Shown: positions 5,531 to 54,369 of the stretch, piece after piece | Numbering within the stretch: the stretch's first letter is position 1 | How the letters are laid out: the number at the start of each line of letters is the position of its first letter | The notes under the pieces: model-generated | Seen by the model: only the letters and a program-made list of their open reading frames with translations | The model's database searches: none | Told to the model about the DNA's origin: nothing | Origin: Candidatus Zixiibacteriota bacterium | Lineage (GTDB): Bacteria; Zixibacteria; MSB-5A5; UM-FILTER-46-8 | Length of the DNA stretch: 64,000 nucleotides | Assembly (NCBI GenBank): GCA_014730175.1 | Contig: WJIR01000314.1 | Span: 92-64,091 of the forward strand | Reading direction: 5' to 3' | Position numbers and translations under genes: made by a program

Positions 5531-5572
5531 TTATCATATTAGATGTAATAAGTTAGTTGTAGAAGGAGACTA

Positions 5573-5839
5573 ATGAGGATTCAAAGAACCGATTCGAGGC
5601 GGCTTAAACTCAGCTATACGGGACAGAGGCGGAAGATCTGTCGATTCTGCGAGAATAAAGCCGATTATATCGATTATAAAGAAGATAGATTGCTTCGTCG
5701 ATTCGTGAATGATCGCGGCAAGATAATTCCTCGTCGCGTCTCGGGAAATTGTGCGAAGCATCAAAGGCAATTAACAAAAGCGATCAAGCGAGCCAGACAG
5801 CTCGGGATGATCGCCTACACCCCAGAGGTGTTCGATTAG
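5573..5839 (+). CDS. rpsR: 30S ribosomal protein S18
   Basis: RKICRFCENKADYIDYKEDRLLRRFVNDRGKIIPRRVSGNCAKHQRQLTKAIKRARQLGMIAY is the S18 signature; an AAGGAGA RBS lies upstream. Confidence 0.9.
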   Translation: MRIQRTDSRRLKLSYTGQRRKICRFCENKADYIDYKEDRLLRRFVNDRGKIIPRRVSGNCAKHQRQLTKAIKRARQLGMIAYTPEVFD

Positions 5840-5842
5840 AGA

Positions 5843-16100: not shown

Positions 16101-17228
16101 ATGGCTCATGCTTATACACCGGGTTTAAAAGTAACGGAAAAGGCACAGATATCCAAGAAACGAATACTTCCTTTAAAAGGCGAGGTTGTCGTTAATGAAG
16201 GGGATACGGTTGAGCCGGATACCGTAGTCGCCAGAACCGAACTTCCGGGAACAGTGGAACCGATGAATGTGGCTAATGTTCTCGGTATTCCGCCCGAGGA
16301 TGTAAACGACTGCATGCTCAAGCAGGTTGGCGATCATGTGGAACAAGGTGAAATAATCGCAAAATCGAAATCGTTTTTTGGTCTTTTTACGTCAACCTGT
16401 AAAGCTAAAATCGACGGTAAGATCGAAAACGTCTCCTCTGTCACAGGTCAGGTATTGCTCAGGGGAGCGCCGGTACCGGTTGAAGTGAAGGCTTATATAA
16501 AGGGTGAGGTTTTTAAAACCATACCGGATGAAGGTGTTGAGGTGAGGACCTGGGGAGCCTTTGCCCAGGGGATTTTTGGTATCGGCGGTGAAACCCATGG
16601 CAAATTGAAAATTGTCTCCTCGGATCCGCACGCAATCCTGGACGAAAAGGATATCACGCCTGAGTTAAAAGACCAAATTATCGTCGGTGGTTCGCTGGTT
16701 ACCGCCTCGGCATTAAAAAAAGCGATCTCAGAAGGCGTCAGAGGGATCGTTGTCGGCGGATTCAACGATAAAGACCTCAGGGATTTTCTCGGATACGATC
16801 TGGGTGTAGCAATCACCGGAAACGAAGATAAAGGTATTACGCTGGTTGTCACAGAGGGATTCGGAGAGATAGCTATGGCGGAACATACATACGGCCTTTT
16901 GAAATCGAAAGAGGGTCAACTTGCTTGCAACAACGGCGCAACACAAATAAGAGCCGGCGTCATCAGACCGGAGGTTGTGATACCGTACGAAGGCGATATC
17001 CACGCCAAGCACGAAGAGGAGGAGGTCGCGAGTCAGGGCCTGGAGGTTGGTTCCCCGATTCGGGTTATTCGCCATCCTTACTTCGGTAAAATCGGAAAGG
17101 TAAGCGATCTCCCATCGCCGCTGCAGAAATTGGAGTCCGAATCGAGGGCTCGCGTGCTCGAAGTTGAATTTGAGGACGAAGGCAAGGTGATTGTACCCAG
17201 AGCGAATGTCGAGCTACTCGAAGACTGA
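16101..17228 (+). CDS. hypothetical protein with an N-terminal barrel-sandwich-hybrid (RnfC/NqrA-N-like) domain
   Basis: The N-terminus PLKGEVVVNEGDTVEPDTVVA…MLKQVGDHVEQGEIIAKS resembles the BSH/lipoyl-like fold of RnfC/NqrA N-termini. The remaining ~250 aa match nothing I recognise. Confidence 0.35.
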   Translation: MAHAYTPGLKVTEKAQISKKRILPLKGEVVVNEGDTVEPDTVVARTELPGTVEPMNVANVLGIPPEDVNDCMLKQVGDHVEQGEIIAKSKSFFGLFTSTCKAKIDGKIENVSSVTGQVLLRGAPVPVEVKAYIKGEVFKTIPDEGVEVRTWGAFAQGIFGIGGETHGKLKIVSSDPHAILDEKDITPELKDQIIVGGSLVTASALKKAISEGVRGIVVGGFNDKDLRDFLGYDLGVAITGNEDKGITLVVTEGFGEIAMAEHTYGLLKSKEGQLACNNGATQIRAGVIRPEVVIPYEGDIHAKHEEEEVASQGLEVGSPIRVIRHPYFGKIGKVSDLPSPLQKLESESRARVLEVEFEDEGKVIVPRANVELLED

Positions 17229-20325: not shown

Positions 20326-23300
20326 CTATTGGATCGAACGTTGCTGTGTTAACTTGTCGGATAATGAGTTGATATATGCTTTTATCATCTGCCGGTACTC
20401 CAGCGGATAATCCTCATTTAATGCTTCCTGCAGCCTCTTTAGATTCCCATGAATATCCGATTCGGTGCTCGCCAAACCATCGGGACCGAGACGCATGATA
20501 TCATCCCCGGCTTCCGCCTTTCTTTCTTCTTTGTATCCTTGTGTCTGTAACGATTTCTGGGCATCGAGCAGACGGGTAAGAATTCTCTCCTGGCGCATGA
20601 GGGTGTTGCGATTTACCATTCCCCTTTCAAAATCGTCAACAACTTCTCTCATTTCCTCGCCCATATCGTCGAGTCTGCCAAGTCTGCCTTCGGAACCTTC
20701 TTCGCTTTCCTGTAGCAGTTGTCTCAGACCTTCTTTGATTGCCTCCTGTTCGGCAGCCATTCTCGCCATAGCATCGCTTTGCGATGATGAGCGGCGCAAT
20801 TGCTGGGCGAGTTCAGAAGTTTTGGCATTCAGGGAACGTTGCTGTCCGGCAAGCGCCGAAAGTTGCCCCTGACTCGATGGCGACTGATTGTTTGGACGCT
20901 GGCAAGCTCCGCCGCTGCACATACCTCCCTGATTCGCCTGCTTTAATAGCTGAAGAAGTCTGAAACCAACTCTGTTAAGATACTTCAACGCATCTTCCTG
21001 TGACACCGATGCCGCCTTGTTTTTTGTCTCCAGTTTGCGTGATGCATCCTGCATTTTTCCCGCAGCTATCGCCAGCTCATTCGACATCGCTGGACCGATT
21101 CTCGGTTCCATCTTATATAAACTGTCGAGATCCACTCTAATTTTCAGTGCCTTCTGGCTAAGGTTATGTTGAGGGGGAGCGATTTCTCTGATTGTGCTAT
21201 CCCGAGGCGACAGAAGAGCTAAATCGTCAAAAAGGGTCTCCTGATTTTGTGATACATACAATACATCGTTGAACGCCTTGCGCGCGATTCTCACCATCTC
21301 CTGATTCTGACCGGATTGCATCTGCTGCCACATCGATTCCATACTGGATGCCAGCTGACTGAGTTTCTGGCTGGCGCTCTGGCAGCTCCCGGAACATGCA
21401 TTTTTGTTTCCCTGCTTCATCTGCTCAGAAGCCTGCTGCATATCCTCGCGCAAACCGGAACTATCCGCCTGCTGTTTCAACTGAGCTAAATCCTCCTCGG
21501 GCATAACCGGTGTTTCCTCATTGAAATCCTGCATCTTATCCAGCCCTTCGTTGAACGATTCCAAATCCTCGGATACGTTATCCTGCTGCTCCGCAAGACG
21601 CTCCATTTCCGACTGGCTTTCTGTGTCTTCCAGGCTCTTCTCGATGTTTTCCTGCTCATCCTTCATTTTATTCGCAAGCTGCCTTAGCTGGTCAAACTTC
21701 TGTTCCGCTCTCAAACGCTTGAGCATATCCAGTGTCTTTTCCAGCTTCTCCAGATACTCCTCTTGTGAAAACTCCAGATTTTCCAACGCTTCTTTTAGCT
21801 GATTTTGATCCAGTTTCTCCATCGCTTCCTGCAATTTTCTTAACGCTTCCATCAACTCCGGCGAGTTTATCTCCTCGAGCAGCTCAGAAATCCTCTGCGA
21901 TTTTTCCAGTATCTCCATCGAGTTCAGCTTGTTTTGCTCAGCTGACTCCTGATTCTTCTGAATGCTTTCCTTTATGTCATCAAGAGCCTGGTTTATCGCA
22001 TTTTGCTTGTCGATAGCTTCTTGTACACGCTTGTTTTTCTCCCAATCAGACTCTTTGAGGCGCATCATCTCCCGACGGATTTCTTCTACTTCGCGGTTCA
22101 GCTTGTCCTGATTGGCAACCGCCTTCTCGATGTCCGTTATATTTTCTTCCCTTCGGGTGTCATAGCCGGTTAGGATCTCATCGACGGATGGAAATCTTAT
22201 GCTATAACGTCGGCTCTCCGCTTTTTTGTATCCTGAATAACGATCATTATCGGTGATCGTGACATAGTATGTAGCTTCATCGCCCGGTATTAATCCTAAT
22301 CCGGTTATATCCCACCGGTGGTTCACAGCTATATCCTGCTCATTTTTCATGCTAAGTGGTATTTCTGCGGTACGCACCGGCTGTTCTATTCCTGATGATT
22401 TAACCTGATATGTGAGGTTCAGTTTGTTAAATCCAAAATCGTCCCTCGCTGAAATCAGCAATGGCAACTCTTTGACATCTCCAATAACAATATCCTCACC
22501 CGGTTGAATTATCTCTACTTCGGGATTTGCATCCGGCAATGCATAGATATTGTAAGTAATCGGATCGGGATTGGTTAGACCATCCGCATCCGCAATCTCA
22601 ATATGATAATTATCATCGGACTTTATCCGAAAGTCAACCGCAGCGGTATTGTCCTTGATTTCCAGTGGCATCTCTCCAGCGCTCTCGAATACAAGCTTCC
22701 CCGTTTCAAGCAATTTATTCGATTCGATTGTCAGTGTAACATTCGTGCCCGGAAGAGCGGTGATATTACCATCGTTTTCATCAATGATAGAAGGAGGTAA
22801 TCCGGTGTAGTTAGGATAAACCAGCTTTTGCTTTAAGTCGATAATCCTCGGTTTATTCACCACCGAAACGGTGTAACGTGGACTCCGGATGTCGGAACTT
22901 ACCAGATAGTAATCAAAGGATTGATTCACCTTCTTCATCTGTATCGAAAAAGCTGCTCCCGCCAGAGCTGAATCCGAAAGCCCTTCGCTTTCAACCGACT
23001 TCATAGGCATGGAATGAAGATTCTCATCATCGGCATAAGCCCAAAGGAATTTAACCTCTTCCGGTTTGACCTTTCCGTTAGTGATTTCCTTATTAGCTAT
23101 AAACGAAGCCCCGATCGTGATATCATCGCCCTTAAGTATCTCCGTATTACCGGGTATTGCAGCTATACTGAATGGATCAGGCTTATCGAATTTAACCGAA
23201 GGATTGGAGAAATCCTTTAATGCATATAGAAAACCAGACGGATAAATAACAGCTATTATCAGTACCGCTACTATCAAACCTGATGCCCACTTAACTCGGG

Positions 23301-25495: not shown

Positions 25496-25507
25496 CCTAT
25501 AGAAAAA

Positions 25508-25581
25508 AGCCACCGAGGGGAGTCGCACCCCTGACCTGCTGATTACGAATCAGCTGCTCTGGCCATCTGAGCTACGGTGGC
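25508..25581 (-). tRNA. tRNA-Thr (anticodon CGT)
   Basis: Reverse complement GCCACCG-TA-GCTC-AGATGGCCA-GAGC-A-GCTGA-TTCGTAA-TCAGC-AGGTC-AGGGG-TGCGACT-CCCCT-CGGTGGC-T folds as a cloverleaf with anticodon CGT. The T-loop reads TGCGACT, i.e. G at position 55 where U is nearly universal. Confidence 0.75.
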
Positions 25582-25675
25582 GGTTAAGTTCGATTCAAAT
25601 TCCCCAAAATATTATTTCGGCTAATTTGTGGCAACAAATTTATTCCTCATTAATAAAAATGTCATTCATATATAT

Positions 25676-25704
25676 TTGACATCTTCAGATTGCTAATATA
25701 TTAT
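25676..25704 (+). promoter_or_regulatory. near-consensus sigma-70 promoter for tRNA-Leu
   Basis: TTGACA, a 17 nt spacer, then TATTAT, ending 17 nt upstream of the mature tRNA-Leu 5' end. Confidence 0.45.
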
Positions 25705-25721
25705 ATTGCCTTCGTATTACA

Positions 25722-25803
25722 GCGAGAGTGGCGGAATTGGCAGACGCGCCGGACTTAGGATCCGGTCCTTCACGGGGTGGGGGTTCGAGTCCCCCCTTTC
25801 GCA
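25722..25803 (+). tRNA. tRNA-Leu (anticodon TAG), class II with a long variable arm
   Basis: Acceptor stem GCGAGAG/CTTTCGC (one G·U pair), anticodon arm CCGGA-CTTAGGA-TCCGG, a long variable arm, T-arm GGGGG-TTCGAGT-CCCCC and discriminator A. Confidence 0.85.
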
Positions 25804-25934
25804 TTTCATCTAACCTTTCGATAGCCATTCTAACAAACATCCGCGAGTTCAATTCGGTGCTTTTCTGATTATTTGGACCGGGGTAGCCGAATATCGATTG
25901 CGGTAGTTTTCGCACCACTACTGAAAAGGGACAG

Positions 25935-27257
25935 CTACTTCACCAGCAACATCCGTTTGGTCTCGAAATAACCGGGGGTCATTAGCCGGTATAGATATTC
26001 ACCGCTTGCCAGCCCATTAGCTCTAAAGTTCAAAGTATACGAACCGGCATCGAGAATTCCATCATAGACTTTACATACCTCTTTGCCGAGGATATTATAC
26101 AGCCTTATACTGACGGGAGAGCGCCTGGGAACATTAAGTCCTATGGTGGTTGATTCATTGAATGGATTGGGATAATTTTGTCGTAAGCTAAATCCTGTCG
26201 AAATCGAAGCATCCGCCGATGGATTAGAACGACTCCAGATCGAACCGCCCTCCGGTCTCTCATTCAATTCTATAATCTCAACTTGATCCAAATCCGAGGT
26301 GCCCAATCCACGCTCTTCCGCTCGCTGTAGCGTCGGTTCGGCCATTGACGCCGAGAAAGTGGGATCATGTTTTTCGAGTAGATTGGCGCAATATGCGTCA
26401 GTTGCCACAATATCCCCGCAGATTATAATTCTGTCCGTATTGACCAGTACAGTCTCTTCATGAATCACAGGCCCAAATATCGTCATCAGGACTCTGGCGT
26501 CAACTATATTCAACTCGGGTCTGATCAATCCCGCTATTTCCGCCACCTCCTCCCTTAGAAACTGGCTGTGGTTGGCATGTATAAATAGCCGGGTGCCGGT
26601 TCTATTTGAGCCGGTGACTGCTCCGACATGGTTTTTGATAGCACAAGTCAAGTCAGCCTGGAAATGCTTTTTTAGATTGCAGAGGTTTATGATTATTGGC
26701 GCATCATAAACCTCCGAATATACCTCGAAATCTGGTCTTTCCTGATCCCAGGAAGGATGTCTTACATTGTAGGGATTCGAAAAAGCTATCAACTCCCCGC
26801 CTGCTTGCGGAACGATCTCATCCAAATTGAGGAAGGGGTAAACGATTTGCGGCGGTCTCCATCCCTGGTCGCCAACATATACTGTACCGTTAGTTGTGCT
26901 TACTACCGACATTATCAATTCGGTGAGAAAATCGGGATCGGTCGATGCCGGGTAGTACTGATCAGTCAGAAAATTAGGTTTTATTAGAACATCCTGATCC
27001 GAGTTAATCAGCCGACCCAATCCACCTATCGCGGTTAAGCCGGTAGCGAGCATATTATTGATGTCAGTGCCTTTGACGCATACCAATACAGGTTTACCCT
27101 CAGGTGTCACAAAGGGATTGGGCAAGCCGACTCTGGGATAAAGGGAAGGATTCAACTTACTTAGAGCTCCAACCGGATTCGCTAAAGTGAAAGCCGAAGC
27201 CATCCCGCCGGATAGCGACTTTATAAATGTTCGTCTGGATTGCGATGAATCATTCAA
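25935..27257 (-). CDS. DUF362-domain protein with an N-terminal twin-arginine (Tat) signal and a T9SS C-terminal sorting domain
   Basis: N-terminus MNDSSQSRRTFIKSLSGGMASAFTLA (SRRxFIK Tat motif); DUF362-like core (…LIKPNF…, …AIKNHVGAV…R…H); the C-terminus LRQNYPNPFNESTTIGL…GEYLYRLMTPGYFETKRMLLVK is a type-A T9SS sorting domain. Confidence 0.6.
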   Translation of the reverse strand: MNDSSQSRRTFIKSLSGGMASAFTLANPVGALSKLNPSLYPRVGLPNPFVTPEGKPVLVCVKGTDINNMLATGLTAIGGLGRLINSDQDVLIKPNFLTDQYYPASTDPDFLTELIMSVVSTTNGTVYVGDQGWRPPQIVYPFLNLDEIVPQAGGELIAFSNPYNVRHPSWDQERPDFEVYSEVYDAPIIINLCNLKKHFQADLTCAIKNHVGAVTGSNRTGTRLFIHANHSQFLREEVAEIAGLIRPELNIVDARVLMTIFGPVIHEETVLVNTDRIIICGDIVATDAYCANLLEKHDPTFSASMAEPTLQRAEERGLGTSDLDQVEIIELNERPEGGSIWSRSNPSADASISTGFSLRQNYPNPFNESTTIGLNVPRRSPVSIRLYNILGKEVCKVYDGILDAGSYTLNFRANGLASGEYLYRLMTPGYFETKRMLLVK

Positions 27258-27342
27258 GTTTGCACCTGCATTATTCTAATTACCGTACACATAGGAACCC
27301 ATTATACAGTTTGAATGTTAATTAGGTCCCGGAGACCAACAT

Positions 27343-28671
27343 TTATTTAACCAACGTCATTGATTTCGTTTCCATTATTCCCGGCGCCGATAAACGATAG
27401 AAATATTTACCGCTGGGTAAGCCGTTGGCGTTGAAGGTTACCGTGTGGGAACCGGCGTGATAAATATCATGTGTTATTGTCGTAACCTCCTTTCCTAACA
27501 TATCATATAGTCTGATATCAATGGGCGCGCTCCGACGCGTCTTGAACCTGATAGACGTGGTTGCATTAAATGGATTCGGATAATTCTGCTCCAGAGCAAT
27601 TGCATCGGGTACGCCGTTCAAATCCGAGTAATGCGGCTTTGAGGATATAGAACCGCCTATAGGTTGTTCGGGAAGTTCGATAATCTCAACATCATCCAAA
27701 CTCGATACACCCAATCCCAGCTCTATCGCCCTATCTATTGTTGGTTCTATCATCTCCGCATCGAAAGTAGGATCGTATTCTTGCATCACCTGTGCGCAAT
27801 ACAAGTCGGTCGCAATTATATCGCCACAGAGAATAAGTAAGTTGGCATCGGCGAGAATTGTGTCCTCATTTGGAGTAGGTCCATAAATTGTCATGATGGT
27901 GCGGGCATCCACAATACATAACTCCGGATTAACCAATCCTGCTAATTCCGCTATATCCTGAAAAAGATGTTCATCGTTGTTCTCATGTATATATGAACGC
28001 GTACCTACTCGATATGGACCATTGACGGTCCCAACATGATTTTTCAGGCAGCATGTCAATTTGGCGTGTTCGCGGCCATGTCTCTTTAGCGTCGGCATAT
28101 TGATAACGATCGATGAATCATATATATCGCTCCAAACTTCAAAATCCGGCTTCTGAGGATGCCATGATAGCCTTCTGACATTATAAGTTTGTTCAAACAT
28201 CACCGGCACACCTCCGGCCTGACTTACAATCCCTTCGACATCAAGGTAGGGATATACTATATCGGCAGGGAGATATCCCTGATCCCCTACCTTAATTGAG
28301 CCCGAAGATACCTGCTTTATTACTTGTATCACCTCGACAATCGCTTCCAGCGACGTTGTTGTGGGATAGTACTGGTCAACCACAAAATTCGGATTTATGA
28401 GACAATCCTGATTTCCGTCGAAAAGCAAATCCAATCCGCCCAATGCACTTAAACCGGTATGCAGCATGGCTCTTAAATCAGTGCCTTTGACCGCTGCTAA
28501 AATCGGCTTGCCTTCATTGTTTACAAACGGATTCGGGATTCGCTCCCGTGGTCCCACGGTTTTACCGCTTGCGGCAAAAATATAGCTGTAAGGATGAAAT
28601 GCAATTAGAGATGCCGCTCCTCCGGACAGGATTTTCAGAAAATCCCTCCTGGAATTAGATTTGTTCCACAT
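27343..28671 (-). CDS. DUF362-domain protein with a Tat signal and T9SS sorting domain (tandem paralog of the gene at 25935..27257)
   Basis: N-terminus MWNKSNSRRDFLKILSGGAASLIAF (a textbook SRRxFLK motif) and the same DUF362 core; the C-terminus LEQNYPNPFNATTSIRF…GKYFYRLSAPGIMETKSMTLVK is a T9SS sorting domain. Roughly 45-50% identical to the neighbouring gene by eye. Confidence 0.6.
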   Translation of the reverse strand: MWNKSNSRRDFLKILSGGAASLIAFHPYSYIFAASGKTVGPRERIPNPFVNNEGKPILAAVKGTDLRAMLHTGLSALGGLDLLFDGNQDCLINPNFVVDQYYPTTTSLEAIVEVIQVIKQVSSGSIKVGDQGYLPADIVYPYLDVEGIVSQAGGVPVMFEQTYNVRRLSWHPQKPDFEVWSDIYDSSIVINMPTLKRHGREHAKLTCCLKNHVGTVNGPYRVGTRSYIHENNDEHLFQDIAELAGLVNPELCIVDARTIMTIYGPTPNEDTILADANLLILCGDIIATDLYCAQVMQEYDPTFDAEMIEPTIDRAIELGLGVSSLDDVEIIELPEQPIGGSISSKPHYSDLNGVPDAIALEQNYPNPFNATTSIRFKTRRSAPIDIRLYDMLGKEVTTITHDIYHAGSHTVTFNANGLPSGKYFYRLSAPGIMETKSMTLVK

Positions 28672-29070
28672 GTAAACCTCATGTTTTTATTATTACATTT
28701 GTTAGACGTTTCATTCGGTGTCTTAAACCACGCGGATTTCAAATAGGAGATATTATCAGTATACATCAACAACACGAAAGGAGATAAATTCTTAACACCC
28801 GGAACAGGTATCTCCCGTATGTATCATTGCGTCGGGGATGATTACCAATATCCCTATTAATTCGCTATAGGATAGCAAATGTCTCCGCTAAAAAATAGCA
28901 ATTTAGTCTAACGGAGAACTACCTTCGCAGACCGCTACGATATGAATTTTTCAAATAACATCTTTGTCTGAAAAGAAAAGGAAGCTGACAAAGGATCGAA
29001 TCAATGCATCACAACTATAGTAGTTTTGCTAAAGATAAAATGGATTCCTGTTTTGTCAAGAAATTTTAGA

Positions 29071-29242
29071 TGAATAATTCGGGTTTGAATTATTCATAAA
29101 AAACATTAATTCGTAGCCGAAGGTTTGTCCATCGGTAGCTCAAGTGAATTAGAATATTTACAGACTGTAATTGAGAATTACAAAGAAATGCCGGAAGCGC
29201 AAGGCTTCCGCTGCCGGTGACTAAATTTATGAATAATACAGG
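29071..29242 (+). repeat. MITE-like repeat, copy A (partly degraded, with a duplicated terminus at the left junction)
   Basis: About 90% identical over ~150 bp to copy B at 36213..36366, including the internal hairpin GGAAGC-GCAAG-GCTTCC. The left end reads TGAATAATTCGGGTT directly abutting GAATTATTCATAAA, and the right end reads TTTATGAATAATACAGG. Confidence 0.6.
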
Positions 29243-29617
29243 CTAAATCCGAAGAATGTACGCAAATCAGAATCCTTAAACCGGCGGGATAACCGGCTCG
29301 GCAGGAATCCAATCTCGAGATCGCTCCGGATATTAATCCGGATGGGAAGTGACTATCGGATACTGAAGAATATCCCGAGATGCACTGCTGAAGATGGAAA
29401 AAAACGATTTCTGTAGATGATGATGAAAAATGGGGTTGACAAATACCAATATGATTTATATGCATTTATAGTGGGCTGTTTCGGGTCCCATAGTGATTCG
29501 CCTCTTCCTGGAAGGAGTTCATAGGGCATATACCCGGAAGCCAGAAGCGGATAACATACTTTTCGAGCGATAATACTAAGAACGATTTCGAAGGAGATCT
29601 CTGAACTCTAACAGCTA

Positions 29618-30238
29618 ATGATTCATATGCCAAAATCTTATTCCATACCATCAGCGATTGTGCTTGCAGCAGGGGAAGGATCAAGGATAGGAAAACCCAA
29701 AGCCATTCTTGAGATAAACGGACGTTTCTTTATTGAACGCGTCATCGACACTCTTATTCTGGCGGGAATCGATAATATAACGGTTGTGTTGGGCGCCGAG
29801 GCGGATAAGATTAAATCGATGACAGACTTGTCAATCGTTAATACCGTCATAAATGAGAACTATACCAACGGACAGTTTAGCTCGCTCCAAGCCGGTCTGA
29901 GCAATCTCAAAGCCGAAGGTGATCTAATCGTGTTCCCGGTTGATCACCCTCTTGTGGAGCCGGATACGGTTATGCAGTTACTGGATTCGGCTACCGAGCC
30001 CAGTAACACCAAGGCGGTCGTTCCGGTATTCAATGGCAAAAAGGGACATCCGGTTTTATTGACCAAATCAATGGTGAGGAAGGTACAGAAGGCAGCGAAT
30101 GGAGAAACTCTCCGAGATATTCTTTGGAACCATCCTTCCGCTGTTAAGCAAATTGGAGTCGATGATCCCGGAATACTTCAGAACATTGATACCGTCGAAG
30201 ACTATCAAGGTTTAATTCTAAAAGCGAGTGAAAATTAG
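29618..30238 (+). CDS. MobA-like NTP transferase (molybdenum cofactor nucleotidyltransferase MobA/MocA family)
   Basis: The N-terminus SAIVLAAGEGSRIGKPKAILEINGRFFIERVIDTL is the MobA-like GT-A nucleotidyltransferase signature. Confidence 0.65.
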   Translation: MIHMPKSYSIPSAIVLAAGEGSRIGKPKAILEINGRFFIERVIDTLILAGIDNITVVLGAEADKIKSMTDLSIVNTVINENYTNGQFSSLQAGLSNLKAEGDLIVFPVDHPLVEPDTVMQLLDSATEPSNTKAVVPVFNGKKGHPVLLTKSMVRKVQKAANGETLRDILWNHPSAVKQIGVDDPGILQNIDTVEDYQGLILKASEN

Positions 30239-30408
30239 GGGAACAACTTTATTCCTTATGAAAGGTATACCCGACAGCCCTGAATATTCCTACTTGTCGA
30301 AGTTCATTCCGGCGCGTACGGAGCTGACATCGGAGTGCGACGGTTTAAGAAGCAGGCGGAAGGCTTTGTCCTTCTACATATATTCTCCCTAAGAAAGAGA
30401 ATAGACCA

Positions 30409-31734
30409 TTGTCGATAGAGGAGGACTCTATGAAAGGCTTTTTTCAATTCGATAGCGTCGGCGCCACTTACGGAAAGGAAATTATCGGGGGTTTAACCAC
30501 CTTTGTAACGACCGCATATATTATCGTTGTCAATCCCGCTATTCTGGAAGCTGCCGGGATTCCCCGCGGTCCTTCGATGGTCGCTACTATCTTAACCGCC
30601 GTATTCGGCACCTTGCTGATGGGCATTTATGCAAAGCGTCCGTTCGCTATTGCGCCATACATGGGCGAGAATGCTTTTATCGCCTATACGGTTTGTGGAG
30701 TTTTAGGATATTCCTGGCAGACAGCCCTTGGCGCCATTTTCATCAGCGGCGTTGCTTTCACCTTACTCACACTGGTTGGGGCGAGAAAATATCTGGCGGA
30801 ATCGATACCTTTCAGCCTCAAGAACGCATTTTCTGTTGGGATCGGCTTATTCCTCACATTTATTGGATTGAATGAGACAGGAATTGTGGAACTGGGAGTT
30901 CCGGGCGCGCCTGTCACCTTCGGTAATATTGCATCGACGAACGTGATAATCGCCATTATCGGACTAATGCTGATAACCATTTTTCTATTGAAACGAATTC
31001 CCGGCGGAATGCTCTTAGGTATCATCGGCGCCGCAATTTTAGCCTTCATTCTTAAAACCGCTCCATTGCCCGAGAAAATAATCTCCATGCCCCCGGACAT
31101 TACGGAAATCTTGTTTCATCTCGATATAAAAGGCGCTCTCACCTGGGGATTTTTCTCGGTTATCCTGACGGTTTTCGTTATGGACTTTGTCGATACCATG
31201 GGTACATTAATCGGAGTATCTTCCCTGGCAGGATTGTTGGACAAGGATGGAAACCTTCCGGAGATAGAAAAACCGATGCTGGTCGATTCCACCAGCACTA
31301 TCTTAGCATCTTTCCTGGGAACCACTACCGCCGGATGCTACATTGAATCAGCCGCCGGTATAAACGCCGGCGCCCGTACCGGATTCGCCTCGATAGTTAC
31401 CGGCTTGCTGTTTTTACTGGCTTTGTTTTTCGCCCCATTTTTGACGGCGATACCACCGGAAGCCTACGGACCCGCGCTTATCGTTGTCGGCTTCATCATG
31501 TTCAAACCGATCACCGGCATTAAGTTCGATGATTTCAGCGAACTTATCCCTGGGGCGTTGACCATAACGCTTATGTCATTCACTTTCAACATCGGAATCG
31601 GGATGACTGCCGGCTTCATCTTTTACCCCTTACTGAAGCTGTTAACCGGTAAAGCAAGAGAGATACATCCGGGAATGTATATACTTTTTGTACTCTCATT
31701 GCTATTCTACATTTTCTATCCTTATGGCGGGTAG
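30409..31734 (+). CDS. NCS2-family purine permease (AzgA/PbuG-like guanine/hypoxanthine/adenine transporter)
   Basis: Has 12-14 TM segments and an N-terminus …GKEIIGGLTTFVTTAYIIVVNPAIL… typical of the AzgA subfamily. Confidence 0.85.
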   Translation: MSIEEDSMKGFFQFDSVGATYGKEIIGGLTTFVTTAYIIVVNPAILEAAGIPRGPSMVATILTAVFGTLLMGIYAKRPFAIAPYMGENAFIAYTVCGVLGYSWQTALGAIFISGVAFTLLTLVGARKYLAESIPFSLKNAFSVGIGLFLTFIGLNETGIVELGVPGAPVTFGNIASTNVIIAIIGLMLITIFLLKRIPGGMLLGIIGAAILAFILKTAPLPEKIISMPPDITEILFHLDIKGALTWGFFSVILTVFVMDFVDTMGTLIGVSSLAGLLDKDGNLPEIEKPMLVDSTSTILASFLGTTTAGCYIESAAGINAGARTGFASIVTGLLFLLALFFAPFLTAIPPEAYGPALIVVGFIMFKPITGIKFDDFSELIPGALTITLMSFTFNIGIGMTAGFIFYPLLKLLTGKAREIHPGMYILFVLSLLFYIFYPYGG

Positions 31735-31933
31735 AGGTTAGATTTAGTAGAATCGCTCTTCATTGCATACCGGTGGTCAGCGCTCCAGCGCTGACACGGA
31801 TTCGCGGCGATTATTTATTAACGGTCATTAGTTCGGAATTCGCTTAACTCACCATTTGATTGAAAGGACCAAACTAACTATTGCATCAAGAATTGTTTTG
31901 GGGTAATTTAGATACTCACCAAAGGAGGAAATT

Positions 31934-33720: not shown

Positions 33721-35751
33721 ATGAAAAAGCTGTGCCTGTTATTAACAATAATCTGTATTGCCTGTCCTGACGCACAGGCAAAAAGAAAAATCACTTTCAA
33801 TGATTTATTCGCTTATCCCATGGTCGGGGATTTTAGATTATCACCCAATGGTAGTAAGATAGCTTTCGTGCTGACCGAACATGATACGCTTACAGGAGAA
33901 TCCCATTCGAGCATTCACATCGTAGATTCCCATGGCGGTAAACCGCGGAAACTTACTAATCGCATCGAACACGTTTCTAATGTCAGGTGGTCACCGAACG
34001 GGAATTGTATATTATTCATTTCCAATAGGGATACCGATAGTAATCAAGCCTGGCGGATAAATATCGATGGCGGTGAATCGGCACGGGTCACTTCAATTTC
34101 CACAGGAGTATCCAACGCGGAATGGTTTCCGGATGGTCAAAGGATACTGTTCACGTCGAATGTTTTCCCCGGCTGCCCGACAGACAGTTGTAACCAGGCG
34201 GAACAAAAGAAGCGGGATGAAAGGCAAACAAGCGGGATGCTCTATGACAAGCTTCCCTTTCGTCATTATAATCACTGGCTCGGAGACAAAGTCGGGCATC
34301 TGATCGTTCACGATTTGAGGGACGGAAGCTATAAGGACATCACGCCGGAAGAAGTAGAAGTCCCTCCTTTCGCCCTCGCCGGATCGCCTTACTACTCGAT
34401 TCATCCTGACGGAGAGCATATCAGCTTCGTAACCAATACCGACAGCAATCTCGCTTTGAGCACCAACAACGACATCTTTATTCTCAACCTGCGGGATAGC
34501 AGCTTGACAAGACTTACCGAAAACGAAGGTAATGATACATCACCGGTGTATTCGCCAAATGGACGTTACTTAGCCTATCTTTCGATGTCGCGCCCTGGAT
34601 ACGAATCGGACAGGCGAAGGCTGTTGATTTATGATATCGGGAAAAGGGAATTGCGAGATCTCACACCCGATTTTCATCTTTCGGTCGGCGGCATCCGTTG
34701 GGCTCCTGATTCAAAGGATATCTACTTCTCCGCGATAGAACGTGGAGGTAACTCACTTTTTAAAGTTTCCATTGGCGGCGGTAAGATTCAACGAATTCTC
34801 GACGGAACGGTACGATGGAATTATCAAGTATTCCCCGATGATAGAAGAATAGCATACATCCAAATAATGCCGGATCGTCCGGCGGAGCTTTTTGTGTATG
34901 ATACCAAAGACGAGACGGAAGCCCGCCTTACGTATTACACCGAGGAGCCATTCAGCCATATAAATATAGAACCTGCTCAGAACTTCTGGTTCAAGGGCGC
35001 TGACGATGTTCGAATTCAAGGCTATCTGACTCTCCCTACCGATTTCGATCCCGATAATAAGTATCCCTTGGTTCTTTTAATCCACGGAGGTCCCCAATGG
35101 ACCTGGTTGGATGAATTCAACTTTTACGGTTGGAATAAATACCTGGTAGCGGCGCAAGGCTATGCTGTTGCACAGATCGATCCCCACGGGAGTGTAGGTT
35201 ACGGGCAGGAATTCACCGATGCTGTCAGCGGTGACTGGGGCGGCAAGGACTACACCGATTTGATGCTCGGGATCGATTTCCTGATCAATAAACATGATTT
35301 TATCGATGGAAGCCGCTTAGCTGCTATGGGACGTTCTTATGGCGGATTCATGGTCAACTGGATTGCCGGGCAAACCGATCGCTTCAAATGCCTGGTTTGT
35401 GTTGATGGATTATTCGACCATGTTTTTGCTTATCTCACAACCGAAGAACTCTGGTTCCCCGAATGGGAATTCAATGGAACTCCATGGGAAAATCCTGACC
35501 TGTATATAGAACGCTCGCCTTCGACTTATTTGAATAATATTAGGACACCGATTTTGTTTGTACATGGGCAAAAGGACTACCGCGTAGATATCAGCCAGGC
35601 ATTAAGCGGTTTCACTGCCCTGCAGAGGAAGGGAGTAGATTCGCAGTTACTTTATTTCCCCAATGAAGGACATAGCATCCATCAAATGAAAAACCTGGAA
35701 TATTTCTACGAAGTGCAATTTGATTGGTTGGCGAAATACTTGAAGGAATAA
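33721..35751 (+). CDS. S9-family serine peptidase (prolyl oligopeptidase / acylaminoacyl peptidase type) with an N-terminal beta-propeller
   Basis: Signal peptide, TolB-like propeller repeats (WSPNGNCILF, YSPNGRYLAY), and a C-terminal alpha/beta-hydrolase domain with GRSYGGFM (GxSxGG) and a catalytic His near the C-terminus. Confidence 0.85.
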   Translation: MKKLCLLLTIICIACPDAQAKRKITFNDLFAYPMVGDFRLSPNGSKIAFVLTEHDTLTGESHSSIHIVDSHGGKPRKLTNRIEHVSNVRWSPNGNCILFISNRDTDSNQAWRINIDGGESARVTSISTGVSNAEWFPDGQRILFTSNVFPGCPTDSCNQAEQKKRDERQTSGMLYDKLPFRHYNHWLGDKVGHLIVHDLRDGSYKDITPEEVEVPPFALAGSPYYSIHPDGEHISFVTNTDSNLALSTNNDIFILNLRDSSLTRLTENEGNDTSPVYSPNGRYLAYLSMSRPGYESDRRRLLIYDIGKRELRDLTPDFHLSVGGIRWAPDSKDIYFSAIERGGNSLFKVSIGGGKIQRILDGTVRWNYQVFPDDRRIAYIQIMPDRPAELFVYDTKDETEARLTYYTEEPFSHINIEPAQNFWFKGADDVRIQGYLTLPTDFDPDNKYPLVLLIHGGPQWTWLDEFNFYGWNKYLVAAQGYAVAQIDPHGSVGYGQEFTDAVSGDWGGKDYTDLMLGIDFLINKHDFIDGSRLAAMGRSYGGFMVNWIAGQTDRFKCLVCVDGLFDHVFAYLTTEELWFPEWEFNGTPWENPDLYIERSPSTYLNNIRTPILFVHGQKDYRVDISQALSGFTALQRKGVDSQLLYFPNEGHSIHQMKNLEYFYEVQFDWLAKYLKE

Positions 35752-36146
35752 AAGCAATTAAGATCCTTCCTTAGGCGTAAAACGAAAAAAGCCCTTCAAT
35801 TCCCCAAGAATACCCAATTCTCGTTCGATTCTACTGTGCAATTAATGGACAGTTTTAACATAATATATGCAAAGCAATGCGCACATCGGGTATAAATTTA
35901 GACTATTTTATATGAGTATTTTCTGCGCGCAAAAAGACGGTAGCCTACTTGCTTAATATTCAATAGGTTATAAAAACCCATTAAAAGTGGCGATGAGAAC
36001 TGATTTGGCATAGATATTGCTCATTTATTGAACTGGAAAAGGTAGTACTGGTAGAGTAAAATCACTGATCAGTCAATTTCTAACATGTAATATCTTTTCA
36101 CTGGTAGTAGTAGCAACGGGTATAGTCCCTTATGCCCTTTGGGAGA

Positions 36147-36192
36147 GTGACCGTGTGAAGAACCTCAACTTTACGCGGTCACTTATTTTTTT
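36147..36192 (+). terminator. terminator-like hairpin plus T-tract in an ORF-free region
   Basis: GTGACCG…(22 nt loop)…CGGTCAC followed by TTATTTTTTT. The loop is large, so this is tentative. Confidence 0.3.
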
Positions 36193-36212
36193 GGCTATAT
36201 TTTTAACCCGTA

Positions 36213-36366
36213 TTATTCATAAAAAACACTAATTCGTAGCCGAAGGCTTGTCCTTCGGTAGCTCTAGTGAATTAGAATATTTACAGACTGTAATTGAAGA
36301 TTCCAAAGAAATACTGGAAGCGCAAGGCTTCCGCTACCGGTGACTAAATTTATGAATAATCCGGGT
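36213..36366 (+). repeat. MITE-like repeat, copy B (best preserved), with ~20 bp terminal inverted repeats
   Basis: The ends are inverted repeats: AACCCGTATTATTCATAAA … TTTATGAATAATCCGGGTT. Internal hairpins are CCGAAGG-CTTGT-CCTTCGG and GGAAGC-GCAAG-GCTTCC. The right TIR overlaps the stop codon of the TonB-receptor-like gene. Confidence 0.65.
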
Positions 36367-38660
36367 TAGAACTCGATTGATAATCCAAAGTTGGGCAGGA
36401 ACGGAAGCTGGCTAATCGGCGAACGTTCAAGGTATTCCCGATCATATACATAGCTATATACATTTTCTCTATTCATAACATTTATGCCTTCAAGATAAAC
36501 ATTCCAGTCCGTTTGCGCCCATTGAAAATCGTATGAAATCCGTAAATCCAGTCGGCTGTAGAAGGGATACCGAACCCCATTAATCTCACCCCAAACCGGT
36601 ATCCATGGCGTGTCCTCGGAATTTACTCCCGGTTTTCTATCTACCACTTCGGTATACGGATAGCCGGAGCCATAACGATAATGACTCGATATCTCCCAGT
36701 TGTGCGAAATCCTGGCGCTCAAACCCATTGTAAATGAATGTCTTTGATCGTAATTGGGACTGTAGTCTCCCAATGGCGTCTTAAGCTTCGCCTCGGAAAG
36801 CGAGTAGTATGCATAACCATTCAACCAATGCCTGTCATCACTTATAACCGACAATTCCAGCCCTTTAACCCCACCTTCGCCTATGTTTTCCGGAATCAGG
36901 GAATCAGGGGGATTATTATATATAAGATTATCCAGATACTTGTGGTAAAGACTTAGATGAATTTGCCAGTTGCGTTCAGTCTTATATTCGAGATCGAAAA
37001 TATTATGAATTGCTCTCTCGGGGGCAATTTCCGGATTTCGCTGCAATTCCGGAAGGTAGTTCTTTTCCAAAAAGGCGGTATAGGTCGGCGGTTGATAGTA
37101 GATACCGCCAAAGTAGCCGATGTTAAACCTCTCGGTCGGATCAAATACTATCCCCCATCGGGGCGATGCCGTTAAATGATTCGTTAATCCTCCACCGGAA
37201 AACCTGTATCCATGATAAAGCGAGAAATTGCCCGGAAGGTAAAACTCCCCGGATATATAGGATGACCATTTCAAAAAAGACTCATTGATATGAAAATGCT
37301 CCTGAATAGGGCGTACATCCGGGCTGTCCGGCGGACGTTCTTCATCCAGGCTATCCGGAAAACCATAACCGTCCCAATTGACCTGCTCGGTAGAGTATGC
37401 CCCCAGATAACCGACTTTAAACTCTCCTATATCGCTCAAGAAAGTCAACTCGCCTTTTAGCGCGCTTTCCTGTATCAAGCTGTTGTAATTGGCATCGATA
37501 TCGCCATCGAGATTCAAATTCCTCTTCTCGTGTATATGATAAATTTTATGGTCAAGGATTATTCCCTTGTTTTGAAGCGATTTCCAATTGATACAAGCGC
37601 CGCTGGAGTACCCGTCATTGAGCGCAATGGCATTATACGATCTGTCATCCTCCTCGCTCTTCTTCTGGTTAAACCGGAATCCTTCTCCGTTGTACCATCC
37701 GGCAGCATAAAACTGGTTTTTGCTCTTCATTCCAATTGAAAGCTTTCCATAAACATCGTAGAAATGCGGGTAGATGCTGTAAGTGTCTTCATTCTTCAGA
37801 AAAAGATCATAAAAGGTACGTCGGAGTGAAAGAAGGTATGAATTTTGGGACGAACCAATGGGACCTTCAATAATACCGTTTGCCGCTAATGTATTCAGGT
37901 CAAAGAACGGTCTATGCTTTTTTTTTGCGCCGTCACGATACTTAATGTCTAAAACCGCCGACAGGCGTCCTCCATATTCAGCAGGATAGCCTCCCGGATA
38001 TAAGTGTATCCCTTTAACCAAATTGGGATTGAATGCGGACAGTACTCCCAGAGCGCGATAGGGATTATAAGCCGGAACATCATCGACAAATACAATATTG
38101 TGTTCCGGTCCATTACCACGTACATACATCTTCGACGAAAAATCGGAGCGCGATTTAACCTGTGGCATTTCTTGCACTTGCCTGAGAAGATCATCTACCA
38201 TGCCGGGATGATCCGATAATTCCTGTACATTCACGCGCTGAGCTGTTTGCCCAATATCGGGGCGAGTCGGTTTGTCGCTGCTTCCGGTCACTTTTACTTC
38301 CGCCATCGGCAGCGGAGCTTCGGTCAGATATATATTTAGGGGAATCGCATTCCCGCTGGTGATTTCTACCTGATTGTGCCGCGATTTATAACCTATCAGG
38401 TCAGCCTTTATCGTATATTTGCCATCGGATTCGATATTCAGTCGGTATTCGCCCGATTCATTTGAAATTGTTTTGTATTCGGTTCCCTCAGCTTCAACCA
38501 CTGCATAGGCTATCGGCTCTCCGCTATTAGCGCTGAAAATCCTGCCATATATTAACGCGGCATCAGCAATATTTGATAAAAAAGCGATAGATAAGAATAA
38601 AAGTACAAAACTGAGAACAACCTTTGCGTAGTCATTATGCATGTTTATAATTCTTTTCAC
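36366..38660 (-). CDS. TonB-dependent-receptor-like outer membrane protein with an N-terminal carboxypeptidase-regulatory-like domain
   Basis: Signal peptide; a CarbopepD_reg-like beta sandwich (IYGRIFSANSGEPIAYAVVEAEGTEYKTISNESGEYRL); a plug/barrel-sized remainder ending in the aromatic terminal residue …LSIEF. Confidence 0.7.
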   Translation of the reverse strand: MKRIINMHNDYAKVVLSFVLLFLSIAFLSNIADAALIYGRIFSANSGEPIAYAVVEAEGTEYKTISNESGEYRLNIESDGKYTIKADLIGYKSRHNQVEITSGNAIPLNIYLTEAPLPMAEVKVTGSSDKPTRPDIGQTAQRVNVQELSDHPGMVDDLLRQVQEMPQVKSRSDFSSKMYVRGNGPEHNIVFVDDVPAYNPYRALGVLSAFNPNLVKGIHLYPGGYPAEYGGRLSAVLDIKYRDGAKKKHRPFFDLNTLAANGIIEGPIGSSQNSYLLSLRRTFYDLFLKNEDTYSIYPHFYDVYGKLSIGMKSKNQFYAAGWYNGEGFRFNQKKSEEDDRSYNAIALNDGYSSGACINWKSLQNKGIILDHKIYHIHEKRNLNLDGDIDANYNSLIQESALKGELTFLSDIGEFKVGYLGAYSTEQVNWDGYGFPDSLDEERPPDSPDVRPIQEHFHINESFLKWSSYISGEFYLPGNFSLYHGYRFSGGGLTNHLTASPRWGIVFDPTERFNIGYFGGIYYQPPTYTAFLEKNYLPELQRNPEIAPERAIHNIFDLEYKTERNWQIHLSLYHKYLDNLIYNNPPDSLIPENIGEGGVKGLELSVISDDRHWLNGYAYYSLSEAKLKTPLGDYSPNYDQRHSFTMGLSARISHNWEISSHYRYGSGYPYTEVVDRKPGVNSEDTPWIPVWGEINGVRYPFYSRLDLRISYDFQWAQTDWNVYLEGINVMNRENVYSYVYDREYLERSPISQLPFLPNFGLSIEF

Positions 38661-38854
38661 CTCAATTAGTTACAGAAGAATTTATTGGTTTCCCCCTATA
38701 ACAGCGCAAAGCCCATACCGTAGCTGCCCTTTTCTTGAGCGTTGTATCTTCTTGTATTCGAGGGGATTATGGTTGATGTCGAAGGGTCGGTAATTGAACG
38801 GCTCTCGATGATGCAGTTATACTGCAATCAGTTGCATGGCTCAGCTCGCATAGT

Positions 38855-39009
38855 TCATTAATACCAATAATCCGTAGTCGAAGGCTTGTCCTTCGGGGAT
38901 TATCATGTAGGCGCGTCGATCTTACTTTCTCATTCAACGCCCTAAAGTGGGTAATGAAACAAACTGCAGGGCTTCTGCTATCAGCTACGAAGTTTGCGAA
39001 TAATACAGG
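38855..39009 (+). repeat. MITE-like repeat, copy C (divergent full-length copy)
   Basis: Shares AATCCGTAGTCGAAGGCTTGTCCTTCGG near the 5' end and GGCTTCTGCTATCAGCTACGAAGTTTGCGAATAATACAGG at the 3' end with copies A and B. The length and orientation are the same. Confidence 0.5.
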
Positions 39010-39302
39010 ATCGATATCTATCAGATTGTTTGCATCATCTAAGCGCCCTACTTCAGGTTATGACTCATAAGTCGATAATAGCATTAGGGATTGGAGCTAC
39101 CGATTATTATAGGATTTTGCTCCATTGAATAAGGATTTAGTTATTTGACAGGTTGTAGTATGTATACTATTAAGCGCCCTTCACAAATCCGATCAATATT
39201 AACATCACCACCAAATAAATGGCAGACCATTCACCTCAAACTGAGATATTCGGGCTTAACTCCGATTTTCATCGATTATGAAGGGAGGATGAGTAAAAAG
39301 TT

Positions 39303-52215: not shown

Positions 52216-54369
52216 CTACAACTCCCCAATCCCAAACTTAATCCCGATTCGCTTCGCCTCGCGCGGCGCAAGGATCAGTTTCCAGTTCGGCATCAGTACC
52301 GAAGACTGGTAAACCTTCTCAAATCCTCCTTCCGATAACGATACCGTATGGATAGGAAATAGCCACAAATCAGCCTCGGAGGATAGTTCGAATCTGCATT
52401 CGGTATTTAGATAAGTATCCTTGATTCCGTAAACTTCAACATCGGAAAGTTGATGAACGCTGGACAGATTACGAGGCTTCACCTTGCGGCCTGCTACGAA
52501 ATAATACCTGTCCGCCGACTCCCCGTCCAGCATGGAGAGATTACATTCACAGCCAAACCATAGCGGCAGTTTCTTATCACATCCGCTGGCAAGAGTGTAC
52601 TCTATTTCCACCGATGCGGAATCATTGGGAACTGTTATCACCTTTCTAACCGTGAGTTGACAAGTCCCATCCTCACAGCCGACTGTGCCCTCCCGGCTTA
52701 GGATTATCCTTAAGCTTTCTTCATCCCCATCGGTTTCCAGAAGGTATTCGCCCTCAACGAAATCACCATATTCATTGTAGTCGCAGGCAGAAAATTTCTC
52801 CAAAGTGGTAGTTGGAGATAGAAAATGGTCTATCAGGAATGTCCGCCGGTAACTATCGTAATGAAGTAGTTTCTCCAATCCCTTTTCCTTGGACTGGATC
52901 ATATCATGTATACTGGCAGCATCGTCTTTCGCAGGTTTCTTGGTGAGATTCTCAAGTATCTGACGGTGATACGCTTCCTCACGTCTGGTTACAGTATTCA
53001 GGAAATTAAATGGATTCTTTTTGTAATCTAATTCGTAAATCGTTCCGCCCCGCAACGGCGACAGGTATATATTGATATGCGGTGTCTCGACGATAAACTC
53101 ATCATTTCCGTCGCGATCGATATCGAATTTATTAGTCTCTATCCAGGTGGAGTTGTTATGCACCACCTTATCCACCAACTTATCGGCGGCAATCAGATGT
53201 TGATATACCGAAGAACGCAGGTTATTCAGATATAATCCTCCGAAAACCCCGTGCCAGTAGGAATCGTTGCATTGCCCCGCAAATTTCTCCCGATTAGCTT
53301 CATCTAAAACGGATAGATTCTGTGATTTGGTCGTATTGTTCCGCGCTTGCTTTATCTTACGGTCTATCCATAACATCTTTTTGTTTAGATTGTTAGCCTC
53401 GGGATACTTGGAAAGAAAATTCCGCCAGAATCCACCCCGGACGAAAATTCCATACTTATCCATCAATCCGTCTTCTTCCAACTGCTTTTCAAAATCCTGA
53501 TACTGGACAGTAGCGCGCGCCGGTAATGACCATTCCATCATCTCGGCGTAAGACGCGGTCGGCAGATATACATTCCCCTTTGGTTTAATCGAATTTATAA
53601 CCTCGCTGAAATGAGCTGTCCGGATTATGTCGCTGCATTTAAGAATGGTTTCGATAAAATTCGGAAGCCATTTCTTTTCGTAACAAAGTTTATGAGTGCC
53701 AGGCCAGATACCGAATTTCTCGGCATCATCAGCATAAACAATTACCGGATTCCCCGCTTTGTTGCACAATTGCATGAGATGGTCGACAGTTTCCGGTATA
53801 TCTTTGAATGGAATGGAGTATCTCAAGAATTTACTGGAAGGAAATATCCTGACGATACTTCCGGTCTCCTCAGCGATATAATATCCATCGAGTTGATGAT
53901 CCTGCAGTCCGGCATATCGAAAATGATTATCATCCACAACCACATATTCAATCCCCGCTTTGCTCAAAGATGCCGGAAGGTGAGGTTCCCATACCCGCTC
54001 GGCAAGCCACATTCCGGTTGGTTTGGCTCCGGCGCGGTTCTCCAGCGTTTCACTCAACATCTTGATTTGCTCCACCTTGTCCTCATCCGGAATAATCGCC
54101 AGAACCGGTTCGTAATACCCTCCGGATAAAAGCTCCAACTGTCCCCGCTCCACCATTTCTTTAATCATTTTGATATGATCGGGGAAATGCCTTTCTATCC
54201 ACTCAAATAAAATACCGCTGTAATGCAGGCATAATTTAAACTGGGGATATTCATAAAATGCGGATAAGCAAGGATGATAGCAGCGTTTATATGAATCTGC
54301 GAAAACGAAATCAAAATTGCCCACCGGCTGATGGGCATGTATGGCAAATACAAATTTTACCGTATTCAT
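52216..54369 (-). CDS. glycoside hydrolase family 57 alpha-glucan-active enzyme (alpha-amylase / branching-enzyme type)
   Basis: The N-terminus VKFVFAIHAHQPVGNF (GH57 region I, HxHQP) and the 717 aa size are typical of GH57. Confidence 0.85.
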   Translation of the reverse strand: MNTVKFVFAIHAHQPVGNFDFVFADSYKRCYHPCLSAFYEYPQFKLCLHYSGILFEWIERHFPDHIKMIKEMVERGQLELLSGGYYEPVLAIIPDEDKVEQIKMLSETLENRAGAKPTGMWLAERVWEPHLPASLSKAGIEYVVVDDNHFRYAGLQDHQLDGYYIAEETGSIVRIFPSSKFLRYSIPFKDIPETVDHLMQLCNKAGNPVIVYADDAEKFGIWPGTHKLCYEKKWLPNFIETILKCSDIIRTAHFSEVINSIKPKGNVYLPTASYAEMMEWSLPARATVQYQDFEKQLEEDGLMDKYGIFVRGGFWRNFLSKYPEANNLNKKMLWIDRKIKQARNNTTKSQNLSVLDEANREKFAGQCNDSYWHGVFGGLYLNNLRSSVYQHLIAADKLVDKVVHNNSTWIETNKFDIDRDGNDEFIVETPHINIYLSPLRGGTIYELDYKKNPFNFLNTVTRREEAYHRQILENLTKKPAKDDAASIHDMIQSKEKGLEKLLHYDSYRRTFLIDHFLSPTTTLEKFSACDYNEYGDFVEGEYLLETDGDEESLRIILSREGTVGCEDGTCQLTVRKVITVPNDSASVEIEYTLASGCDKKLPLWFGCECNLSMLDGESADRYYFVAGRKVKPRNLSSVHQLSDVEVYGIKDTYLNTECRFELSSEADLWLFPIHTVSLSEGGFEKVYQSSVLMPNWKLILAPREAKRIGIKFGIGEL

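Follow-up and report, generated by a model that had tools for sequence, protein, structure and literature searches.

A family of miniature inverted-repeat elements with IS1380-type termini in an uncultured bacterial lineage, probably mobilized in trans

Copies of the repeat in the window

The window, by which we mean the whole 64-kb stretch of DNA that was analyzed, carries a TonB-dependent receptor gene on the minus strand (36366-38660) and, directly adjoining it, a short repeated element on the plus strand, copy B, which by direct reading of the sequence occupies positions 36207-36365. An earlier note on this DNA had placed the start at 36213, about 8 nt off; the sequence quoted there begins at 36205. 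Copy B is laid out as TTAA/CCCGTATTATTCATAAA ... TTTATGAATAATCCGGG/TTAG, the slashes marking the junctions with the flanking DNA. Its left terminal inverted repeat, CCCGTATTATTCATAAA (36207-36223), which recurs unchanged at the left end of L044, a metagenomic IS1380-family element, is followed by a first hairpin, H1 (36236-36258), in which the head GTAG precedes the stem and loop CCGAAGG/CTTGT/CCTTCGG. A second hairpin, H2 (36315-36337), reads TGGAAGC/GCAAG/GCTTCCG followed by CTAC and is the inverted counterpart of H1, and the right terminal inverted repeat, TTTATGAATAATCCGGG, closes the element at 36349-36365; all of these coordinates refer to the plus strand. On the outside lie the 4-mers TTAA (36203-36206), a target-site duplication that is seen as TTAA on both sides of the orthologous copy in a sister genome described below, and TTAG (36366-36369), the TTA of which is the TAA stop codon of the receptor gene.

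The inverted-repeat termini with a single mismatch that had been noticed in copy B are borne out, since the arms, including two outer bases, pair at 18 of 19 positions. Both internal hairpins are likewise present, and the interior holds no open reading frame of more than 31 amino acids, in line with the earlier statement that none is encoded. The predicted fold of copy B has an energy of -55 kcal/mol. Relative to shuffled sequence, z is -6.0 for B, -4.7 for copy A, and only -1.4 for the decayed copy C, which places the inverted-repeat structure of A and B far above chance. When H1 is compared with the reverse complement of H2, the two prove to be inverted copies, set apart by the exchange of two base pairs (C-G to G-C and G-C to C-G); with these exchanges each local 7-bp stem stays perfect, and the long hairpin that could form as an alternative acquires C·C, G·G, and C·C mismatches.

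Three copies of the repeat, A, B, and C, lie in the same orientation on the plus strand of the window. The earlier note had this orientation right and its count incomplete, as a fourth occurrence, a solo right-end fragment reading GGAAGCTAC...TTTATGAATAGTACAGG and followed by TTAG, is found at 59553-59585 on the plus strand. A profile search gave extents of 29085-29250 for A, 36203-36373 for B, and 38841-39017 for C, all on the plus strand, and 59553-59592 for the fragment, while a repeat finder returned A and B as a pair of 157 nt at 92% identity and both ends as three-copy families. As the note had it, A is nearly identical to B (90 to 92%) and C is divergent (57 to 66% identical to the other copies). 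Copy A (29086-29242, plus strand) has a canonical right end followed by CTAA (29243-29246); its left repeat lacks the first 4 to 5 nt, and the junction is noncanonical. Adjoining it is an inverted end fragment, ATGAATAATTCGGGTT (29070-29085, plus strand), and the junction as a whole (29070-29100) forms an 11-bp perfect palindrome, ATGAATAATTC-GGGTTT-GAATTATTCAT; the fragment could stem either from a short inversion at the junction or from a second, neighboring copy or end of which it is the remnant. The decayed copy C (38845-39009, plus strand) retains an intact H1 but has a degenerate H2 and flanks other than YTAN.

Copies in a sister genome and their insertion sites

A scan with the H1 motif, run with one genome per species, gave 14 matches, all in a single metagenome-assembled genome, CAZLVS01 (GCA_964563085.1; labeled uncultured Ignavibacteria), which is about 85% identical to the window at the DNA level over syntenic stretches and which we refer to as the sister genome. 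Twelve of the matches are full-length copies of 163 to 165 bp with unrelated flanks. The remainder comprise short forms with one hairpin, about 90 bp long (L012 and L001), truncated copies, and variants, and the short form L012 has perfect terminal inverted repeats. In total, the sister genome contains at least 16 copies on at least 11 contigs, all of them intergenic. Across the family, the element proper is noncoding, lies between genes in every copy, and measures 159 to 165 bp; the terminal repeats are 17 nt long, and copies at unrelated loci begin and end at exactly the same base despite their unrelated flanks. It should be added that one protein encoded in the window has a 100% identical counterpart at NCBI, from a metagenome-assembled genome labeled candidate division Zixibacteria. 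Two genomes of about 85% identity are here recorded under phylum-level labels that differ, and at least one of these labels, Zixibacteria or Ignavibacteria, is probably wrong.

Comparison of orthologous sites points to mobility. The window carries copy A at a locus where the sister genome lacks the element and has a single TTAA: positions 1-3576 and 3609-6066 of the sister contig L021 align with window positions 25498-29066 and 29263-31735, leaving an empty site of 33 bp with TTAA where the window reads ...CAGG/CTAA. Conversely, a copy is present in the sister genome at L013 7317-7487, and the corresponding window site, near 52,060, is empty. Both comparisons are blurred by indels and divergence, and the left junction of copy A is rearranged. 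Copy B is present at the orthologous position in both genomes (L015 12270-12439 in the sister). It is only 75% identical to this orthologue, B', and 90% identical to copy A, while B' is 89 to 90% identical to other copies in the sister genome (e.g., that on L003). This pattern fits lineage-specific amplification from an ancestral copy or homogenization within each genome. The earlier note would have been refuted by repeats confined to three sites and lacking mobile-element features; there are at least 16 copies in the sister genome, with filled and empty sites.

The 4-mers outside the termini of the 16 complete copies conform to YTAN and are identical on both sides in 7 of the 16 (permutation P = 0.0017); an inverted arrangement of the 4-mers fits only one copy. 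The flanks represent direct duplications of a 4-bp target site rather than outer parts of the inverted repeat or duplications of TA alone. In agreement with this, positions 1 and 4 of the flanking 4-mer covary between the two sides, both among copies of the family and among metagenomic elements with the same ends. The flanks differ between sides in the other nine copies, which is expected because the copies have diverged by about 15%, although such unequal flanks leave room for a shorter duplication combined with a strong target preference. Several copies supply the TA(A/G) of a flank as the stop codon of a gene; most copies lie downstream of genes, and their orientation relative to neighboring genes has no consistent bias.

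Some copies also coincide with breaks in gene order. Synteny between the genomes breaks at window position 38837, a few bases before the left end of copy C (38837-38845), and again, in the sister genome, at a copy truncated to its left end (L015 16796-16842; breakpoint region 16783-16842). Since decayed and truncated copies sit at these breakpoints, the family appears to promote rearrangement. Contigs of the sister species in Logan terminate inside the repeat. A further breakpoint region is found at window positions 31735-31868, where a block encoding a MobA-like protein and a permease adjoins an adenine deaminase gene; the two parts lie on different contigs in the sister genome.

Termini and parentage

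The 17-nt terminus of the family, CCCGGATAATTCATAAA (in pattern form, the element ends read CCCGKATWATTCAYAAA), is also the terminal inverted repeat of metagenomic insertion sequences of about 1.65 to 1.8 kb. A metagenome scan with the terminus alone, TANCCCGGATAATTCAYAAA, matched at least 120 loci. Among the matches listed, inverted pairs of the terminus occur at 37 loci; 19 pairs are of MITE size (137 to 261 bp), 14 pairs are 1655 to 1804 bp apart, and IS1380-like transposase genes are found at 26 loci. These transposases are 33 to 100% identical to one another and share the same ends, which indicates that the terminus is conserved across a deep subgroup of IS1380. The clearest case is an insertion sequence of 1804 bp (L073 338-2141) with perfect 17-bp repeats, 17/17 identical to CCCGGATAATTCATAAA, and CTAG on both sides. 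Its open reading frame of 489 amino acids matches PF13701 with 523 bits and the NCBIfam model NF033539 (IS1380 family transposase; cutoff, 180) with 390.5 bits. Again among the matches listed, the 4 bp on either side are the same in 17 of 34 paired elements (P < 1e-5), with CTAG, TTAA, CTAA, and TTAG among them. An annotated IS1380-family element of Mesorhizobium, at 43% protein identity, has the related repeat CCCGTCTTATGCACGA and the flanks CTAG/CTAG. In two cases, L061 1681-3040 and L108 10016-11375, a 210-bp MITE shares an end with a 1360-bp structure that a third copy of the terminus delimits, which suggests nested or composite arrangements of IS1380-type ends.

The window family thus resembles IS1380-family insertion sequences such as IS1247 and ISEcp1 (and L073, L044, and L107 among those recovered here) in its repeat, which starts with CCCG and is matched 17/17 to CCCGGATAATTCATAAA, and in its 4-bp duplication at CTAG, TTAA, or YTAR, and the two likely share a mechanism, cut-and-paste or copy transposition by a DDE transposase. 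It differs from them in measuring about 160 bp, in lacking a transposase gene, and in having an unrelated interior with two GYAG-headed hairpins. Other MITEs with the IS1380 terminus (L028, L096, L104, L137, and others; 137 to 261 bp) share the repeat, the YTAR flanks, the size class, and the potential to form a long hairpin, but their interiors are unrelated to each other and to that of the window family, and a profile of the window family had no match to them at an E value of ≤1e-3. The transposon piggyBac likewise duplicates a 4-bp target, TTAA, and has 5'-CCC...GGG-3' termini. In contrast to the present family, with its YTAR or YTAN targets, piggyBac and its MITEs are eukaryotic and strictly TTAA specific, and the piggyBac transposases are longer. 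IS1380 transposases have been described as the prokaryotic outgroup of piggyBac (PMC10813416), and IS1247, a member of the IS1380 family, has been reported as 1672 bp long with repeats of 16/13 bp and a duplication of 5 bp (PMC3281130).

Other parents fare less well. The earlier note had proposed an IS630 or IS200/IS605 type; the ends together with the 4-bp YTAR duplication mark the family as IS1380 related instead, as IS630 makes a 2-bp TA duplication and IS200/IS605 elements have neither terminal inverted repeats nor a duplication. An IS630 parent is ruled out by the covariation of the outer positions of the 4-mer and by ends that match IS1380. The known IS630-type MITEs (Correia/NEMIS, RUP, and ERIC) are comparable in being intergenic, 100 to 170 bp long, and bounded by terminal repeats with TA junctions, in having the potential to form RNA hairpins, and in that they can affect transcript stability and termination; however, they combine a TA-only duplication with IS630 ends, whereas here 4 bp are duplicated next to IS1380 ends. 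A derivative of IS200/IS605 (PATE) is ruled out by the presence of both repeats and duplication and by hairpins that are mutually inverted. IS5, which also targets YTAR and duplicates 4 bp (PMC5009759), was considered for that reason and dropped, because the terminus is found on IS1380-family elements and the ends of IS5 differ.

We therefore consider it probable, at roughly 85%, that the repeat is a MITE derived from, and mobilized in trans by, a transposase of the IS1380 family with a DDE active site. The earlier designation as a nonautonomous element of MITE type is upheld by copy number, insertion polymorphism, target-site duplications, and ends that match autonomous insertion sequences. 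In the proposed course of events, an IS1380-family transposase would bind both terminal repeats and cut a YTAR target with a 4-bp stagger, and the element would insert with duplication of the 4-mer. Because either strand of YTAR contains a stop codon, the ends of genes would be frequent and tolerated targets. Beyond the terminus of about 17 nt, no similarity to the recovered insertion sequences was detected, and the interior is not recognizable as a deletion derivative of any of them; the true parent element may simply be unsampled. A tblastn search of the 64-kb window and of some 160 kb of sister-genome DNA turned up no IS1380-family transposase gene; mobilization in trans is thus presumed for this host, and the family is possibly immobile now.

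The pattern of terminal repeat plus hairpin had no match in JGI metagenomes and viral contigs, so the family is apparently confined to a narrow lineage, and a blastn search of PLSDB plasmids with a consensus-like copy was also negative. In this uncultured lineage the family is apparently uncatalogued, yet it is ordinary in kind. The earlier remark that the termini belong to no described family is correct for Rfam but not beyond it: IS1380-family insertion sequences and MITEs with this terminus are widespread in metagenomes. One and the same 17-nt terminus is common to IS1380-family elements with transposases that are about 35% identical and to many unrelated environmental MITE families. With a terminus so widely shared, IS1380-derived MITEs seem to be common and yet barely described. 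In the lineage at hand, the family accounts for three unannotated repeats of the window and for assembly breaks, and its copies mark sites of rearrangement between the sister genomes. More generally, MITEs that duplicate YTAR or TTAA could aid the study of target choice in the IS1380/piggyBac superfamily.

Internal hairpins and competing readings

The hairpins are the part of the element that the IS1380 ends do not account for: no consistent subterminal hairpin was seen in 11 full-length IS1380 elements, and GYAG-headed hairpins are absent from the related insertion sequences and from MITEs with the same terminus. Divergence from the family consensus is 1 to 2% in the stems, 4 to 8% in the loops, about 7% in the terminal repeats, and 14 to 20% in the spacers and center; the hairpins are thus better conserved than any other region, the transposase-binding ends included. 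The conservation of H1 is inflated because the copies were found via the H1 pattern. For H2, where this bias does not apply, the stem still varies less than the loop (P = 0.012). The head is GTAG in the left hairpin and GYAG on the opposite strand in the right one, and both hairpins face inward with a T-rich tail: H1 on the plus strand is followed by GAGTTTAAT, and H2 on the minus strand was flagged as terminator-like, with the tail AGTATTTCTT, the T-tails of both being imperfect.

From inward-facing hairpins with T-rich tails we infer a role in stopping transcription from either side, H1 and H2 acting as putative bidirectional terminators. If they do stop transcription, insertions between genes would be harmless or useful, and the family would be a natural case of a transposon that spreads terminators to gene ends. 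Possibly, the hairpins serve in addition as an extra recognition feature. It is also conceivable, though on balance we doubt it, that H1 and H2 are a captured host module, be it a REP-like unit or an intrinsic terminator, and that the family works as a terminator or insulator that is mobile and acts in both directions. In that case, benefit to the host, or a second protein that binds the hairpins, would have influenced its spread alongside the IS1380 transposase. Solitary GYAG-headed hairpins that differ little from H1 in sequence and belong to no full element occur in the sister genome at L011 1119-1141, L015 9402-9424, L015 17335-17357, and L001 5980-6002. In two of these four, the stem has changed in a compensatory way, to CCGAGGG/CCCTCGG, and T-runs follow, as in intrinsic terminators; one such T-run hairpin stands directly after the stop codon of a gene.

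A quite different reading of the hairpins is that the repeat resembles a REPIN or BIME, in which two inverted REP units are moved as single-stranded DNA by a RAYT, a Y1 HUH transposase, and that the outer repeats are merely the extended stem of the REPIN. We judge this highly improbable. The GTAG/GYAG heads, the loops, which resemble those of published REPs such as GTAGCCCGGATGCAATCCGGG and GTGGGAGGGGGCTTGCCCCCGAT, the arrangement of the units in inverted doublets, and the solitary GYAG hairpins elsewhere in the sister genome all speak for it, and the likeness to REP/REPIN systems with RAYT extends to the extragenic location of GTAG-headed GC palindromes in inverted pairs, whose heads conform to 5' GT[AG]G. 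REPINs, however, have no target-site duplication and no DDE-type repeats, reach hundreds of copies, and need a RAYT gene. In the present family, the ends are sharp and bordered by 4-bp direct repeats, which HUH transposition does not make, the terminus is common to IS1380-family insertion sequences, copies number in the tens and not in the hundreds, and hairpins of this kind are missing from other MITEs that share the repeat. A phmmer search with IS200 TnpA and Escherichia coli RAYT sequences as queries found no RAYT-like ORF in 224 kb, a result that counts as a lead only. The single weak match (E = 0.006) is spurious, as it runs antisense inside an aminotransferase gene where Pfam is blank. 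The window genes include some with Por_Secre_tail domains, and an all-against-all blastp comparison of the ORFs among the loci for multicopy transposase-like ORFs returned only these shared domains.

Nor do we favor the idea, raised in the earlier note, of a structured RNA-forming repeat family, in the form of small RNA genes or cis-regulatory RNAs with the inverted repeats as closing stem, which seems to us very unlikely. The folds are strong (that of B has -55 kcal/mol, with a z of -6.0, as given above), RNAalifold finds more wobble G-U cells than A-C cells on the plus strand, and copy B is kept at the orthologous site in both genomes. Against this, there is no Rfam match, either at gathering thresholds over the window or at an E value of ≤1 over 35700-36400, and compensatory changes between copies are present in none of 33 predicted pairs. 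Folding in both orientations, a check envisaged in the earlier note, gave a difference in energy between plus and minus strands that is not significant (mean, -3.4 kcal/mol; P = 0.07), and the G-U excess in RNAalifold is therefore not borne out as strand-specific structure. Furthermore, the copies have no consistent orientation relative to neighboring genes, B and B' are only 75% identical where the adjacent noncoding stretch is about 98% identical, and presence/absence polymorphism with target-site duplications is the behavior of a DNA-level element. The weakest reading, in which a nonmobile regulatory or terminator module would have been multiplied by recombination or segmental duplication without any transposition, is barely tenable: T-tailed hairpins that look like terminators and the position of most copies downstream of genes agree with it, but it is already largely refuted by the sharp, base-identical boundaries at unrelated loci with unrelated flanks and the 4-bp direct repeats around copies, and it is countered too by the filled and empty orthologous sites and by termini common to transposase-encoding elements. 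A MITE with IS1380 ends remains the reading that we prefer.

A few other features of the two genomes were recorded. Motifs like GGGGATAAGCATGC adjoin several copies of the MITE (in the flanks of the elements on L001, L003, and L007), and the sister genome has other families of short repeats (L015 9715-9735 and 17180-17440), one of them of the CATTGCGAGCGAAGCGAAGCAATCC type. The window contains a pair of 37-nt direct repeats at 22423-22459 and 53580-53616 with 73% identity (TTTGTTAAATCCAAAATCGTCCCTCGCTGAAATCAGC), which may reflect chance or a shared short motif. Two divergent tRNA genes, at 25508-25581 (minus strand) and 25722-25803 (plus strand), are the sole Rfam matches in the window. Lastly, the noncoding stretch upstream of copy B (35822-36197, plus strand), especially 36009-36197, is about 98% identical to its counterpart in the sister genome, compared with about 83% for the flanking genes. 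It has no Rfam match at an E value of ≤1 and no ORF of more than 37 amino acids, and it terminates in a strong hairpin with a T-run (36145-36184, followed by ATTTTTTT); judging from these features, it looks like an unannotated small RNA gene.
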